Part shown: positions 75 to 6,139 of the stretch, piece after piece
How positions within the stretch are numbered: position 1 is the stretch's first letter
Layout: the number at the start of each line of letters is the position of its first letter
Origin: a virus
Lineage: Duplodnaviria > Heunggongvirae > Uroviricota > Caudoviricetes
Strand: one strand, 5' to 3'
Length of the DNA: 28,335 nucleotides
IMG/VR virus record: IMGVR_UViG_2737471849_000009
Position numbers and translations under genes: made by a program
Notes under the pieces: generated by a model
What the model was told of the DNA's origin: nothing
The model's database searches: none
The model's input: only the letters and a program-made list of their open reading frames with translations

Positions 75-1361
75 TTACCCCGCTTTCTTATGGGGCATGC
101 ATGGGACACTTTCAGATAGTCTTCTGTTAAGAAGTTCTATTTGTTCGTGATTGTTGTCTTTCATCCATGCTCCGTAAACATTGAATACCATTTGTGCGTT
201 TGTGTGGCCCATCTGGCTCGCGATAAAACTAGGATTAGCTCCTGCGGCAAGTGACCAGCATGCATAGGTATGCCTGGATTGATACGATTTTCTGTGTCTC
301 AGACCTGCGCGTTTTAAGATACTTGTCCATGACTCCCTGATGGAGTCAACCTTATAGTGCGGTCCGGAAAACTGCCGTTGTTTTATTACCTGAGGACTAA
401 AAACAAAAGTGCATTTATGCACAGTACTTCTCCCATATTCCCTCTGCTTTACCTCTACAGAATGCTGTTTTCCAAGCATGGTCATTTCCGCTTGGCTTTT
501 AAGAGCATCAATAGCTGGTTGAACTAGATGAATCGTTCTTCCGGTACCAGCATCAGTTTTTGGTGGAGTGAATTCGCCTAGTTTTGTATAATTCCGGCGG
601 ATGGTTATAGTCCTCGCTTTAAGGTCTATATCTTCCCAGGCCAGTGATACCAGCTCCCCGTGACGAATACCCGTGTATACAGCGATAATCCACAGGTTTT
701 TTGTTTGTTGATGACGGCAAGCCTCAATAAAACGAATAAATTCGTCACGGGTGAGGGGATCTGGTTCTATCTTGGACTTTTTTAATGGTGTCAGACCGTT
801 AAATGGATTTCCTGATGTATAACCATTATCTGTTGCAAATTGAAACATTCCAGCTATGGTTGTCATATAGTAGTTTACTGTGACCACTGAGCGTCCTTTT
901 ATGGAAGAAATTTTTCCGTTAGAAAGCTTTTGATAACCGGTCAACAGATCTCTCCTTACGAAAAGCAAATCCTCTTTTGTTACAGATGAAACCAGTCTTT
1001 TTTCACCTAACATTGGCAACATGTTTTTAATTACTGACTGGTAACGGTTAAGTGCATTTGCACAAATCTCTATTTTCTTCAGTTCAAGCCATCTTTCCGA
1101 AAGTGCTTTAATGGTTATCTCTCTTTTCCCCAGACCAAAGTGTTTCAGGTTAGGGGACTCAGGGAACTGTGCTGCATAGTCGAAACTCCCCATTCTGATT
1201 GCAAAACAAACGGAAGTGCGGAGGTCACCTGCGATTTTCCGGTTTTTGGCGGTGTCAGGAACACCGAGGTTTTCTCTGACACGTTTGCCGTTATAGTGAA
1301 ACCATATGCGGAGTGATCCGCCATGATTTTCAACGCCTGTTGGGTATGATGTATTACTCAT
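75..1361 (-). CDS. int: Phage integrase, tyrosine recombinase (Rac IntR-like)
   Basis: 428-aa ORF with C-terminal catalytic signature (IRHGELVSLAWEDIDL; RHTYACWSLAAGANPSFIASQMGH; NVYGAW) and N-terminal arm-binding-like segment (GSLRIWFHYNGKRVRENLG); recalled similarity to E. coli Rac-type integrases; terminal position next to an excisionase-like gene. Confidence 0.9.
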   Translation of the reverse strand: MSNTSYPTGVENHGGSLRIWFHYNGKRVRENLGVPDTAKNRKIAGDLRTSVCFAIRMGSFDYAAQFPESPNLKHFGLGKREITIKALSERWLELKKIEICANALNRYQSVIKNMLPMLGEKRLVSSVTKEDLLFVRRDLLTGYQKLSNGKISSIKGRSVVTVNYYMTTIAGMFQFATDNGYTSGNPFNGLTPLKKSKIEPDPLTRDEFIRFIEACRHQQTKNLWIIAVYTGIRHGELVSLAWEDIDLKARTITIRRNYTKLGEFTPPKTDAGTGRTIHLVQPAIDALKSQAEMTMLGKQHSVEVKQREYGRSTVHKCTFVFSPQVIKQRQFSGPHYKVDSIRESWTSILKRAGLRHRKSYQSRHTYACWSLAAGANPSFIASQMGHTNAQMVFNVYGAWMKDNNHEQIELLNRRLSESVPCMPHKKAG

Positions 1362-2080: not shown

Positions 2081-2458
2081 TCAGAGCCGTATGTTTGTAG
2101 CGGGTTCAATACTGATAATTTCTGCTGAGATAAGCATCCCGGCAAGCCAGAGTTCTCCGGACAGGTCTTCATCCTGACATATCAGTTCGCCAATATTAAT
2201 GGTGGCCATGATATCTGTTTCCCCTGTGCGCTCATCCTCGACTTCTTCATAAGGCAGCGTTGCGTACAGGCTTTCAATAGCGCAACTGATAACATCCAGT
2301 CCGGTCAGATTGCCGCCGACAGTAACTTCGAATGTTTCGCGGTATTCCCATAGTCCGAAAGTTAATCGAACGGTTTGTTTTGCCATGCGTCCGCATGACG
2401 TCAGATTCGGGTCATAGTTCATTATTTGCGGTTGAGTATTCTGGGTGTTCATCTGCAT
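2081..2458 (-). CDS. Hypothetical early-left protein (about 125 aa)
   Basis: ORF 2081..2527 trimmed to the ATG cluster at 2453-2458, preceded by AAGGGA; the longer version would run through the intercistronic hairpin at 2467-2485. Confidence 0.4.
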   Translation of the reverse strand: MQMNTQNTQPQIMNYDPNLTSCGRMAKQTVRLTFGLWEYRETFEVTVGGNLTGLDVISCAIESLYATLPYEEVEDERTGETDIMATINIGELICQDEDLSGELWLAGMLISAEIISIEPATNIRL

Positions 2459-2466
2459 TTCCCTTA

Positions 2467-2485
2467 GCCCGGCGGCCTGCCGGGC
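2467..2485 (-). other. Intercistronic stem-loop (GCCCGGC-GGCCT-GCCGGGC)
   Basis: Perfect 7-bp inverted repeat with 5-nt loop between the SPFH gene stop and the next start; no U-tract on the minus strand, so not a canonical intrinsic terminator. Confidence 0.4.
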
Positions 2486-2492
2486 ATATAAG

Positions 2493-3320
2493 TTATTTAA
2501 TCTGGATAAATGGTGTATTGGCACCACTGGTCATGTATTGCGGCAGTGTACCGTTCCACTTGTTGATGGCTTCCAGCTCCATGACGCCTGGGTTCTGGCG
2601 TAGAGCTTCGCCGCGTAAACGAATGGCATCGGCTTCTGCCTGGGCTTTTGTTCGAATGGCATCAGCCTGTCCGGCAGCTTCCGCACGTAGCATGTTGGCC
2701 TCCGCTTCACGTTGCTTGACTTCCTGCTCGCGCTGCAGGGTTTTCTGGTTTGCCGTGACTTTGGCATTAATGCTGTCGATAACGGTTGGCGGGTACTCCG
2801 GCTTACCCACATATGAGAGGCTCATTACCTGAATACCGATAGGTGTCATCTCTGCCTGAATGTCTTTAAGAGCTTCATCCAGCAGCTCAGACTTGCCGCC
2901 GTCGATAAATTTGTCAGTGGTCATTTGGCTGGCCAGTCGGTTGAGTGCGTCGGCGATCTTCTGGCGCAGGTCAGTGTCGGTAATGTCATCCACGCCTTTG
3001 CGGTAGGTCTGAAACACCGTGGTAACTTTGGATGGATCAACTTTGTAGGCCACGCCAATGTGATAGCCGATGGTTGTACCGTCACTCATCTGGAAACTGA
3101 ACGGTTCATCGTAGGTCTTCATTTGTTTGAAGGTGGGGAAGATATAAACTTCAGTATTCCAGCCAGTCCAGTAGCGACCAACACCGACCACCTCACCGAC
3201 GCCTTTGTCGTCGCCCAGTTTATTTACCTTGATGCCAACATTACCTGGTTCAACGCGATCGCAACCGACAAGGCCAATAGTCGGCAGAACAATGGCTAAA
3301 GCAAAAATAATTTTTTTCAT
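2493..3320 (-). CDS. SPFH/band-7 (prohibitin/HflC-like) family lipoprotein
   Basis: 275 aa; N-terminal signal peptide with lipobox LVGC; C-terminal Ala/Glu/Arg-rich coiled-coil segment (QREQEVKQREAEANMLRAEAAGQADAIRTKAQAEADAIRLRGEA) typical of SPFH proteins. Confidence 0.75.
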   Translation of the reverse strand: MKKIIFALAIVLPTIGLVGCDRVEPGNVGIKVNKLGDDKGVGEVVGVGRYWTGWNTEVYIFPTFKQMKTYDEPFSFQMSDGTTIGYHIGVAYKVDPSKVTTVFQTYRKGVDDITDTDLRQKIADALNRLASQMTTDKFIDGGKSELLDEALKDIQAEMTPIGIQVMSLSYVGKPEYPPTVIDSINAKVTANQKTLQREQEVKQREAEANMLRAEAAGQADAIRTKAQAEADAIRLRGEALRQNPGVMELEAINKWNGTLPQYMTSGANTPFIQIK

Positions 3321-3505
3321 CTTTTATCCTTAGTGAAAGAAAGACCCTTGTAAATGGCATAAATGCAGGGCGGGGTCAGAAACGCCAGTGCAAAGCCAGA
3401 AATAACTGCTATCGTATCCTTCATGGATATAAGGAACGGAACGAGTAATCCGTAAATGCATGCGATAATTGCCAGTAAAATTACTATTGTGAAATACAGT
3501 CTCAT
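3317..3505 (-). CDS. Small membrane protein (62 aa, two predicted TM helices)
   Basis: Hydrophobic ORF whose stop overlaps the SPFH start in an ATGA arrangement, implying translational coupling. Confidence 0.5.
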   Translation of the reverse strand: MRLYFTIVILLAIIACIYGLLVPFLISMKDTIAVISGFALAFLTPPCIYAIYKGLSFTKDKR

Positions 3506-3528
3506 TGGTCTGTGGTATCCCGATATTT

Positions 3529-3636
3529 TTAACCGACTGACAGCGCAATAAAGAGAATAATGATTTCAGTTAGTGTCAGTACTGTGGCAAGGATTAAAAT
3601 CAGTTTTACTCTGTTTAATTCACGGTTGCTTTTCAT
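3529..3636 (-). CDS. Putative single-TM micropeptide (35 aa, MKSNRELNRVKLILILATVLTLTEIIILFIALSVG)
   Basis: Hand-translated ORF directly downstream of the candidate promoter/palindrome at 3658-3693; no clear Shine-Dalgarno, so speculative. Confidence 0.2.
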   Translation of the reverse strand: MKSNRELNRVKLILILATVLTLTEIIILFIALSVG

Positions 3637-3657
3637 ATAAACGGTTGGTAAAAGATG

Positions 3658-3693
3658 GAAGAATTATATTCTTCTTAATATTTAATGTGTCAC
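3658..3693 (-). promoter_or_regulatory. Candidate promoter with palindromic operator (GAAGAAT-N3-ATTCTTC) overlapping a TATAAT -10
   Basis: Perfect 7-bp inverted repeat at 3658-3674; on the minus strand its centre reads TATAAT, with GTGACA about 19 nt upstream as a possible -35; sits just upstream of the membrane/SPFH genes. Confidence 0.4.
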
Positions 3694-4263
3694 TGGCGCT
3701 TCTGGCATACCATGAGTATTCAGGTCGTTCATCATTTCATCCAGAAGGAGTTCAAGCCCTTCGCGCCCCATAGCAGAAATAATGAAACCATTATCAGGAT
3801 CTGCGATGAGCATTTTTTGATAGAGAAACAGAACTCGCCCCATGCCTTCAGCTTCGCCATATTTTTCAATAAATCCCCATTCGACGTGGTTTTGCAGGGC
3901 AATACGAAGTGGTCCGGGGTAGATACTCAGGCAACCATGTTTACCCTTGTAAATAACCGCGTGATCTGTAGTTCCGTTATCGTTAGGGATATCAACGGTA
4001 CCGTTCTTGTCTTTCTCTTCATTTATAAACGTAGTCACATACAGCCATCGCCACTGAGCAACCTTCATATCGACTGAAAATCGTCCCAGCAACCCTGCAT
4101 CATCGGCTTCTGCAATACATTGCATGATTCTTAAACCGTGTGAGTTTGGATAATCGTATTCACCATCATTAAGCCGCTGTACGGCCTCAACATAATCAAT
4201 GGTTGTATTGCCAATTTTTATGCCATGTGGCGTAACTTCTGGTCGGAACTCTGAATGATTCAT
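3682..4263 (-). CDS. Hypothetical protein (193 aa from ATG 4261-4263)
   Basis: ORF 3682..4320 trimmed to the Met with AAGGAG 9 nt upstream; its start overlaps the stop of the upstream 62-aa ORF (TTATGA); no recognisable motif. Confidence 0.5.
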   Translation of the reverse strand: MNHSEFRPEVTPHGIKIGNTTIDYVEAVQRLNDGEYDYPNSHGLRIMQCIAEADDAGLLGRFSVDMKVAQWRWLYVTTFINEEKDKNGTVDIPNDNGTTDHAVIYKGKHGCLSIYPGPLRIALQNHVEWGFIEKYGEAEGMGRVLFLYQKMLIADPDNGFIISAMGREGLELLLDEMMNDLNTHGMPEAPVTH

Positions 4264-4850: not shown

Positions 4851-5303
4851 TTACTCCTTTGCAGCATTGCTACCAGTCAATAACCACATCGGATCGCAGC
4901 CAAGAATATTTGCCAGTGGGATAAGCATACTGATAGTTGGTTCATACTCTCCGCTCTCCCACTGGATGATGATTTCTTCATCAAGAGCGAGCAGCCTGGC
5001 GAGTTCGGCTGTTGTTAAGCCGCAGGCTTCGCGTTGGGTGCGAAGGTTAACCAGCCAGCTTTCAGGGAAGGATTGTTTTTGTTGTGCAGGAGAAGCAGCA
5101 GATAGAGCATATTCATGGATAAATTCCATTACCTCAATGCCCAGTTCCTTTGAGCGAGCACAATCCAGAAGATGGAATGTGCGTACAGCACTTAGCAAAT
5201 TTGCAATATTTAATGCAAAGGAATCAAGTTCTAAGCCCTTAAGCGTAACACAGCCGCAGTTGATAAAATTAGTTGTTTCTGGAGTTGCTTTTAGTGTCTT
5301 CAT
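4851..5303 (-). CDS. HTH (XRE-type) domain protein with uncharacterised N-terminal domain
   Basis: 150 aa; C-terminal segment LTTAELARLLALDEEIIIQWESGEYEPTISMLIPLANILGCDPMWLL matches the XRE helix-turn-helix pattern; first gene after the pL-like promoter. Confidence 0.55.
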   Translation of the reverse strand: MKTLKATPETTNFINCGCVTLKGLELDSFALNIANLLSAVRTFHLLDCARSKELGIEVMEFIHEYALSAASPAQQKQSFPESWLVNLRTQREACGLTTAELARLLALDEEIIIQWESGEYEPTISMLIPLANILGCDPMWLLTGSNAAKE

Positions 5304-5356: not shown

Positions 5357-5385
5357 ATATTATGCTTTGGGAAATAGGCTGTCAA
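5357..5385 (-). promoter_or_regulatory. pL-like sigma70 promoter (TTGACA-N17-TAATAT) for the leftward accessory operon
   Basis: Minus strand reads cTTGACAgcctatttcccaaagcaTAATATcg: consensus -35, 17-nt spacer, near-consensus -10; positioned between the cI terminator and the first early-left gene as in lambda. Confidence 0.55.
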
Positions 5386-5449: not shown

Positions 5450-6139
5450 CTAACCAAATCTGTTTATGTTGAATGGTACTGATGAGATCACTTTAGACTG
5501 GATATAAAGCAGAGCTAACCCCTCTTTTTCGATGCTCCATGGTTGATAATTGGGGTTATCAGATAACACCATGATTTTGCTTCCAATTTTTTGAAGCCTT
5601 TTCACGTAGCATTCTCCATCAAAACAAAATGCATAAATACCATCGCCATCAAAATAAGTTACTGTCTTATCAAGAAAAAGAAGGTCGCCAGGTGAGATTG
5701 TGGGAGCCATACTGTCTCCTCTGGCGTTACCTATTTCTATATTTTTGAATGCCCGATTTCCAACAAGACGTCGGGCATATTCAGGATCAAGTTCTATTGA
5801 GCGCACTACATCTATCAAGTCACCACGGACATGAGTTCCATCACCGCAACTGAACTCAACATCAAGGACATTAAACACGACGCTATCTGTTCTTGTCTGG
5901 TGTTTCTCTGGCGAGGAGAAGGTCGGTGAGGGGTCTTCACCTAAGAACCAGGATTGTGGATAACCGCTAATCTCTGATAACTGCGCAAGCTTATCACTCC
6001 GTGGAAATGTCTTTCCTGTTGTCCAGTACTGCACTGATTGCGCACTCACACCTAACTTACGGGCCAGTTGAGCTTGAGTCCATCCTTTTGCTTTCAGCAT
6101 CGCGGCTATACGATTTTCCGTGTTTTTGACGTTCTTCAT
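5450..6139 (-). CDS. cI: CI-like prophage repressor (HTH plus LexA-like S24 peptidase domain)
   Basis: 229 aa; N-terminal HTH (WTQAQLARKLGVSAQSVQYWTTGK); C-terminal peptidase motifs GDSMAPT (Ser) and VKRL (Lys); divergent from a Cro-like gene. Confidence 0.85.
   Translation of the reverse strand: MKNVKNTENRIAAMLKAKGWTQAQLARKLGVSAQSVQYWTTGKTFPRSDKLAQLSEISGYPQSWFLGEDPSPTFSSPEKHQTRTDSVVFNVLDVEFSCGDGTHVRGDLIDVVRSIELDPEYARRLVGNRAFKNIEIGNARGDSMAPTISPGDLLFLDKTVTYFDGDGIYAFCFDGECYVKRLQKIGSKIMVLSDNPNYQPWSIEKEGLALLYIQSKVISSVPFNINRFG

Follow-up and report, generated by a model that had tools for sequence, protein, structure and literature searches.

High-resolution views of SPFH cages, such as those of HflK/C, prohibitin, stomatin, flotillin and erlin, are recent, and the effect of these cages on their clients is debated. 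Prohibitin forms an extracytoplasmic cage that is associated with the FtsH-family (m-AAA) protease. In the HflK/HflC-FtsH system of Escherichia coli (PDB 7vhp, 7vhq, 7wi3, 9cz2) a periplasmic-side SPFH domain leads into a long wall helix, with a cap segment at the C-terminus, and in SPFH-NfeD operons such as that of QmcA-YbbJ (PDB 8z5g) an SPFH gene is paired and co-transcribed with the gene of a small multi-transmembrane protein. Related features are found in a two-gene module of the viral record IMGVR_UViG_2737471849_000009 (Caudoviricetes), a stretch of 28,335 nucleotides that is called the window in the following and that nucleotide comparison identifies as a phiP27-like lambdoid prophage. 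The module consists of the gene for a 275-residue SPFH/Band-7 lipoprotein (2493-3320, minus strand) and the gene for a 62-residue protein with two transmembrane (TM) segments (3317-3505, minus strand). It combines an SPFH scaffold with a membrane partner, and differs from HflK/C and from the SPFH-NfeD pairs in both the anchor and the partner. We think that the two proteins may form a split HflK/C-like cage in the periplasm that would act on a conserved target in the inner membrane at an early stage of lytic growth, a reading to which we assign a probability of roughly 0.45.

The SPFH gene has been present in the databases since the sequencing of phiP27, where it is L05, a "putative serine protease". 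The module shares direct homology, with no structural difference, with phiP27 L05, N4 gp20/gp19, P88 gp12/gp11 and the lipoprotein of SSU5 (PHROG 200/1130), and the entries of these homologues consist of annotation only ("lipoprotein", "putative serine protease", "membrane protein"). The literature searched contained no functional study of phage SPFH lipoproteins and no description of the two-TM partner, of the pairing or of the fusions reported below; the main texts of a CRISPRi-ART paper (PMC11879866) and of a preprint on phage gene essentiality by transposon mutagenesis (10.64898/2025.12.19.695335) do not mention these genes. The module is a widespread, easily testable unknown in model phages. 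Understanding it would give a function to a family that ranks among the 200 largest of phage proteins and is labelled only "lipoprotein" or, wrongly, "serine protease", and a compact, lipid-anchored phage SPFH protein with a dedicated partner of about 60 residues would be a simple and genetically tractable model, available in N4 and in about 8% of the complete E. coli genomes.

The SPFH lipoprotein and its two-TM partner

The larger protein matches the Pfam family Band_7 (PF01145) over residues 22-208 with an E-value of 3.3e-31 and a score of 109.1 bits, as compared with a gathering cut-off of 23.6, and it matches phrog_200 ("lipoprotein") with 1.5e-113. The phrog_200 profile has 379 positions, and the alignment of the window protein to positions 81-359 only is consistent with a family consensus that includes the partner domain. 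Sequence and hydropathy mark residues 1-20 (3261-3320, minus strand) as a signal peptide, MKKIIFALAIVLPTIGLVGC followed by Asp, with the basic n-region MKK, a hydrophobic core and a terminal lipobox, L17-V18-G19-C20. Cys20 is nearly invariant in the family alignment; the window protein continues as Cys20-Asp21-Arg22, and the Cys-Asp pair is kept in 101 of 105 enterobacterial homologues. According to the Lol-avoidance rule of E. coli, an Asp at position +2 after the lipidated Cys retains a lipoprotein in the inner membrane, and by this rule the SPFH protein is predicted to stay on the periplasmic face of that membrane. The gene is under strong purifying selection, with ratios of nonsynonymous to synonymous substitution rates (dN/dS) of 0.02-0.05 relative to related prophages.

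The AlphaFold 2 (AF2) model of the SPFH monomer is confident, with a pLDDT (predicted local distance difference test) of 89.4. As in HflK/HflC, its alpha/beta domain is followed by a long helix, here of 65 residues (178-242), and the chain ends in a short segment. Foldseek aligned it near full length, with HflC as best match (4.9e-14) followed by prohibitin-2, HflK and erlin, and found further matches to the stomatin, flotillin and QmcA cages; the probability was 1.00 for HflC, HflK, PHB, erlin and stomatin. Searched against PDB sequences, the family profile matched PHB1 at 2.4e-10 (positions 8-242), QmcA at 1.8e-7 and HflK/C at about 1e-7. The closest solved relative by sequence profile is therefore the mitochondrial PHB1/PHB2 complex (PDB 8rrh, 9o9z), which unlike the phage module is eukaryotic, hetero-oligomeric and TM-anchored, and has no small two-TM partner. 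As the HflC and HflK equivalog models (TIGR01932 and TIGR01933) scored only 25.5 and 23.1 bits, far under their cut-offs of 134.4 and 159.4, the phage protein is not an orthologue of either. It also differs from them in its predicted lipid anchor at the lipobox, which takes the place of a TM anchor, and the locus holds a single SPFH gene where HflK and HflC are two paralogues. QmcA, in turn, faces the cytoplasm, whereas the phage protein is predicted to be exported.

The label "putative serine protease" of phiP27 L05 was considered and rejected, as Band_7 is the only domain found and no protease domain is present; the only PHROG "protease" match is marginal (5.8e-4) and falls in the coiled-coil region. 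Many annotations of Shiga toxin (Stx) phages and other phages nevertheless name members of this family "serine protease" or "putative serine protease", and some phage records call them "transposase fusion protein", "RIIB lysis inhibitor" or "peptidyl-tRNA hydrolase".

The partner is a protein with two hydrophobic segments and a basic C-terminus that matches phrog_1130 ("membrane protein") with 2.5e-23. Its gene is likewise under purifying selection (dN/dS 0-0.38 relative to related prophages), and the turn at the end of TM1, P23-x-L-I-S27, is conserved, with Pro23 and Ser27 nearly invariant in the partner alignment. Its N-terminal end carries one basic residue and its C-terminal end a net charge of +3, so that by the positive-inside rule both ends would be cytoplasmic and the conserved turn periplasmic; the protein is probably a hairpin in the inner membrane. 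This protein and 22 relatives gave no NfeD match in Pfam. The family has no relative in Pfam or NCBIfam, and its profile found nothing below an E-value of 0.1 among PDB chains, YbbJ included. The 62-residue hairpin hence belongs to a family absent from Pfam and the PDB, which sets the module apart from HflK/HflC, and it lacks the NfeD/OB-fold domain of the SPFH-NfeD partners.

The two genes overlap by the stop/start sequence ATGA (3317-3320, minus strand), and overlaps of 4-11 nt between partner and SPFH genes recur in N4, phi1026b, OLIVR5, Pa5400 and cr85_1. A preliminary description of this locus, made from its letters alone, had proposed an SPFH lipoprotein translationally coupled to a 62-residue two-TM protein, and the Band_7 match, the lipobox and the ATGA overlap bear this out. 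The partnership is in fact stronger than was claimed there, being conserved in distant phages and sometimes realized as a single chain. Among the 150 best family representatives of a library clustered at 50% identity, the sample used for fusions and motifs, about 18 are natural fusions of 330-390 residues. These begin with an N-terminal two-TM domain, continue with a basic linker and a signal-peptide-like helix with a lipobox, and end with the SPFH domain, an order of TM anchor before SPFH domain that they share with HflK/HflC. Their topology is consistent with the arrangement predicted for the separate proteins: the two TM segments would run in-out-in, the linker is basic, and the third helix (in-out) would place the SPFH domain in the periplasm.

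A hidden Markov model (HMM) built solely from the N-termini of the fused homologues was searched against the 540 open reading frames (ORFs) of the window and retrieved the 62-residue ORF with an E-value of 4.7e-17, the next best being 0.05. The same HMM detected a partner with the same turn motif directly upstream of the SPFH gene, usually overlapping it, in most contexts sampled. The E-values were 6e-14 in MS20657, 3e-13 for an unannotated ORF of a phage-plasmid, 1e-13 in OLIVR5, 3e-10 for N4 gp19, 7e-10 for an unannotated ORF of Pokken, 1e-9 for P88 gp11, 2e-8 in UTI89, 4e-8 in Lak-B6, 5e-8 in both DSS3_MAL1 and Pa5400, and 2e-5 in a Nevskia prophage. In KpS8 it is the second gene upstream of the SPFH gene that encodes the partner (2e-13). 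The proteins phi1026b gp49 and crAss cr85_1 gp015 have two TM segments and a comparable turn but only marginal HMM scores, and Ccr29 has a different, three-TM protein. As judged from these sequence comparisons, the 62-residue protein and the SPFH lipoprotein constitute one functional unit that is conserved across distant phages.

One fusion, P0160 (L024:2643-3641), has an identical translation on three independent metagenomic contigs with a phage-like context; a search of viral contigs with this fused protein gave no confirmed relative. The fusion still contains GGAG-N6-ATG ahead of its signal peptide, so that the locus might make both the fused protein and a separate lipoprotein. As the lipobox is then internal, one may also ask whether the fused chain is cut in two by signal peptidase II.

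Genome annotation frequently overlooks the small partner gene. It is unannotated in the phiP27 RefSeq record (NC_003356, 3304-3492), in the phage-plasmid pJS316 (L006:5776-6012) and in the Stenotrophomonas phage Pokken (L019:960-1187), in each of which an intact ORF is recognized by the family HMM. In the window, the Shine-Dalgarno sequence of the gene is poorly placed, with GGGA 15 nt upstream of the ATG, while the MS20657 counterpart has AGGAGG. Translation of the window gene may depend on ribosome traffic from upstream.

Distribution among temperate and lytic phages

Cassette matches are present in 414 of 5426 complete E. coli genomes (about 8%), and the homology often ends near 2466-2480 and near 3510, thereby enclosing the two genes alone. 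The cassette is mobile among phages. Three temperate backbones that are unrelated to one another carry it, namely the leftward early operon of phiP27-like lambdoid prophages, the early operon of the P2-like P88 and UTI89 between cox and the replication gene, and phage-plasmids of about 91 kb related to SSU5. SPFH homologues were found by tblastn in 383 of 50,697 phage records, and the named hosts among the top ten matches are all Gram-negative; the identity is 99.3% to phiP27 L05 and 62% to N4 gp20. In the 50%-identity representative library, 3021 matches had an E-value of 1e-3 or lower and 226 had 1e-30 or lower. Many of the carriers are strictly lytic; these include N4 and other Schitoviridae, Bruynoghevirus, Vequintavirinae and Ounavirinae, and also crAss-like phages, Lak megaphages and phiCbK-like Caulobacter phages. 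The module is thus common to crAss-like, Lak, N4-like, P2-like, lambdoid and phage-plasmid genomes, and in N4, TL and P88 the pair is located in early or middle regions.

These findings bear on the suggestion that a prophage-specific defence or abortive-infection gene of the moron type is encoded here. Since the pair is common to hundreds of temperate and strictly lytic phages, and in its P2-like and lambdoid carriers belongs to early operons, that suggestion does not hold: going by the genomes compared, the module is a widespread phage gene pair and not a prophage-specific defence gene with its own switch. The models of PADLOC-DB 2.0 gave no match with an E-value of 0.1 or lower to the SPFH protein, the 62-residue protein, the 35-residue ORF discussed below or four neighbouring genes. 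The gene set does recur widely, as had been considered, but it does so on phages and not as a chromosomal housekeeping operon; the chromosomal examples inspected lie within prophage-like gene arrays.

A rival explanation, close to an idea of the preliminary description, is superinfection exclusion, in which a periplasm-facing SPFH layer and the two-TM protein would block the DNA-delivery apparatus of later phages at the inner membrane, with expression either from the prophage or in early lytic growth. The predicted location of the module at the inner membrane and in the periplasm would suit such a role, and so would its position among early genes, as T4 imm and sp are superinfection-exclusion genes that are expressed early. 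Membrane lipoproteins that serve as exclusion factors also exist, namely TP-J34 Ltp and T5 Llp, and T4 Imm/Sp, P22 SieA, HK97 gp15 and TP-J34 Ltp resemble the module in being small, inner-membrane and/or lipid-anchored periplasmic proteins that are expressed early or from a prophage. This likeness is a functional analogy, and no relation in sequence or fold between the module and these membrane proteins was detected. In N4, gp19-gp20 adjoin gp18 (L007:2407-2721), which is annotated "superinfection exclusion" and as similar to P22 gp17, and in the Vi01-like phage PhiSH19 the SPFH gene adjoins a gene annotated "superinfection exclusion protein" (PMC3220722). Both of these neighbour annotations are putative and lend weak support. 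No PADLOC model matches the module, and no prophage promoter is supported in the window. Moreover, a narrow range and fast evolution are usual for exclusion factors, but phages as distant as those of Bacteroidota and the coliphages share this pair, at a dN/dS of 0.02-0.05; this breadth together with the low dN/dS is better explained by a conserved host target, and we regard exclusion as unlikely to be the general function.

Another candidate function is protection of the membrane, or timing of lysis. Here the cage would stabilize the inner membrane or restrain pore formers that are holin-like or derived from defence systems, and the cell would be kept energized until assembly ends, which could include the countering of membrane-disrupting abortive-infection effectors. 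Counter-defence genes lie near the module in two cases, the gene for the Thoeris anti-defence protein Tad2 in the phage-plasmid (L006:3709-4284) and the NAD-salvage genes for NAMPT and ribose-phosphate pyrophosphokinase in crAss cr85_1 (L010:157-2308). Together with N4 gp18 they may represent a conflict-related neighbourhood, or merely an accessory early region, and as guilt by association this evidence is thin. The partner resembles a class-II holin in size and topology (62 residues, two TM segments, basic C-terminus), the carriers have very different lifestyles, and SPFH proteins are linked to membrane stress tolerance (PMC10434171, PMC12005517). On the other hand, the module was never in a lysis cassette among the loci inspected, its partner motif does not resemble those of known holins, and among 23 partners a holin match, a weak one, was obtained for a single protein. 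Taken together, these points make the protective function distinctly improbable.

A possible periplasmic cage

The low dN/dS across phages of Proteobacteria and Bacteroidota, lytic and temperate alike, and the early or middle position of the pair point to a conserved host target in the inner membrane, and we therefore favour the split HflK/C-like cage introduced above. In this mechanism, the module would be transcribed within the leftward early operon, with no promoter of its own. The 62-residue protein would insert into the inner membrane as a helical hairpin with cytoplasmic ends and the P-x-L-I-S turn in the periplasm. The SPFH protein would be exported, lipidated at Cys20 and kept by Asp21 at the periplasmic surface of the inner membrane, and would oligomerize via its long helix and its C-terminal W-x-G-x-L-P segment into a ring or cage like those of HflK/C and prohibitin. 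The presence of this motif in 115 of the 150 family representatives is suggestive of cage formation. Such a cage would surround an area of inner membrane in which the two-TM partner is embedded, so that the TM anchor and the extracytoplasmic SPFH domain of HflK/C would be divided between two proteins. Soon after infection or induction, the pair would act on an inner-membrane component of the host that is conserved across diderm bacteria. The most plausible candidate is the FtsH-type membrane quality-control machinery, which is suggested by analogy with HflK/C and prohibitin, or else membrane organization itself.

Several observations weigh against this mechanism. The structure prediction is that of an SPFH monomer, a single chain. 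As the equivalog scores are far under their cut-offs, the link to FtsH is one of analogy. Many family members outside the Enterobacteria have Ser or Thr at position +2, which by the E. coli rule implies an outer-membrane destination. In TL and phiEa21-4 no partner adjoins the SPFH gene. The module may also be expressed in the lysogen. Finally, the papers that touch on phage SPFH proteins only speculate about them, their role being unclear since lytic phages carry the gene (PMC8540360, PMC13239085, PMC10269572, PMC4936722).

A broader version of the split HflK/C-like cage would see in the pair an ancient two-component phage system that, early in infection, captures or reprogrammes a universal inner-membrane machine, for example FtsH, or shields the membrane from competing phages and membrane-acting defences; in this extended form the proposal is doubtful. 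A lambda-style steering of lysogeny through CII was also considered as a general role and was rejected, because P2-like and lytic phages carry the module.

Transcription and the flanks of the module

The preliminary description further placed the module under independent, operator-controlled transcription from a promoter overlapped by a palindrome, with a TM peptide of 35 residues as a possible third partner. The palindrome exists at 3658-3674 (GAAGAAT-TAT-ATTCTTC, with perfect 7-bp arms), and its centre does read TATAAT on the minus strand (3662-3667), but several results speak against a regulatory role. A search of the window for inverted repeats that have perfect 7-bp arms and a loop of 0-10 nt gave 38 matches at about 27 distinct sites, so that this one is not exceptional, and the window holds no second copy of it that could form an operator set. 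In seven related prophages the arms are broken without compensation, with one mismatch in phiP27, one in strain 729 and three in A34. Its TATAAT was not called by the promoter scan, and the only -35-like hexamer, GTGACA, stands at a spacer of 19 nt, outside the range of 16-18 nt. Folded as RNA, the palindrome would give a hairpin of only -4.9 kcal/mol. CG and T6 come after it in most relatives, and in the window this T-run is interrupted. Given the weak hairpin and the T6 of most relatives, it could just as well have a weak terminator-like role as be a promoter. An RNA terminator in the window itself was rejected, since with -4.9 kcal/mol and an interrupted T-run it would be weak at best. We consider the palindrome probably fortuitous, or at most a weak terminator-like hairpin.

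A promoter-like site that could serve the module instead lies further upstream. The sequence TTGACA-17-TAATAT at 5385-5357 (minus strand) has 10 of 12 matches in the promoter scan, and the scan found no minus-strand terminator-like site between 5357-5385 and 2493. The scan found seven promoter-like sites in the window, as compared with 7.6 expected by chance. In the surroundings of this site, the LexA/CI-like repressor gene (5450-6139) is directly followed at its 3' side by a terminator-like hairpin, AACGGGCTTTGCCCGTT, with a T-run (5438-5422, minus strand), then comes the promoter-like site, and after it the gene for a helix-turn-helix (HTH) "CII-like regulator" (4851-5303). This succession is likely the layout of a leftward early operon, and 5385-5357 is likely the start of the operon that contains the module. 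The integrase gene (75-1361, minus strand) is on the same strand as the excisionase gene and all module genes. With an unconserved and unique palindrome, no proper -35 element and no terminator-like site between 5385-5357 and the module, the proposed independent transcription is not supported.

A further reading is lysogenic conversion, in which the prophage would express a surface or virulence lipoprotein via the palindrome-overlapped promoter and benefit its host, for example by immune stimulation or serum resistance. The TATAAT stands 25 nt upstream of the 35-residue ORF, and PHROG places phrog_1130 in the category "moron, auxiliary metabolic gene and host takeover". Activation of Toll-like receptor 2 (TLR2) is, however, a generic property of lipoproteins, Asp at +2 predicts an inner-membrane and not a surface location, lytic phages carry the module, and the promoter has no usable -35 element and a palindrome that is neither conserved nor repeated. 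A possible precedent is PM0222 of Pasteurella multocida, an HflK/C-like lipoprotein from a prophage island that has been described as acting on TLR1/2 as an agonist and as contributing to virulence (PMC9872710). We think that conversion is very unlikely to be the function of this module.

Apart from its open frame, nothing direct supports the 35-residue hydrophobic ORF (3529-3636, minus strand). It is open in seven of seven related prophages, but its dN/dS of 0.84-1.03 is close to neutral, as compared with 0.02-0.05 for the SPFH gene and 0-0.38 for the 62-residue gene. It has no Shine-Dalgarno sequence, no family match in Pfam or PHROG and no RefSeq annotation. Among the 5426 complete E. coli genomes it is confined to a phiP27-like subset of 133, and with the homology of the conserved cassette stopping near 3510, it falls outside that unit. 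On this sequence evidence it is probably neither a functional gene nor part of the module, and its role as a third partner is not supported. The only argument for its translation is indirect and concerns the upstream ribosome traffic mentioned for the 62-residue gene, as its stop codon is 23 nt upstream of that gene. For this window in particular the practical message is hence negative: neither a promoter or operator of the module's own nor a third peptide has good evidence behind it.

In the region 2300-3800, the window is 99.9% identical to a prophage that adjoins the DUF72 (yecE) gene of E. coli MEI7BO1-21 and 96.6% identical to the Stx2e phage phiP27. At the 3' edge of the cassette, a GC-rich hairpin (GCCCGGC-AGGCC-GCCGGGC, 2467-2485, minus strand, -17.1 kcal/mol, no U-tract) sits between the stop codon of the SPFH gene and the start of the DUF5406 gene at 2452. 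The homology breakpoints 2466 and 2480 of other E. coli prophages fall at this hairpin, which may be a recombination joint or an mRNA-stabilizing element. With the GTG at 2527 as its start, the longest DUF5406 ORF (2081-2527) would extend 35 nt into the SPFH gene. The more likely start is the ATG at 2452, which gives a gene of 2081-2452 and is backed by RefSeq and by the Shine-Dalgarno sequence AAGGGA.

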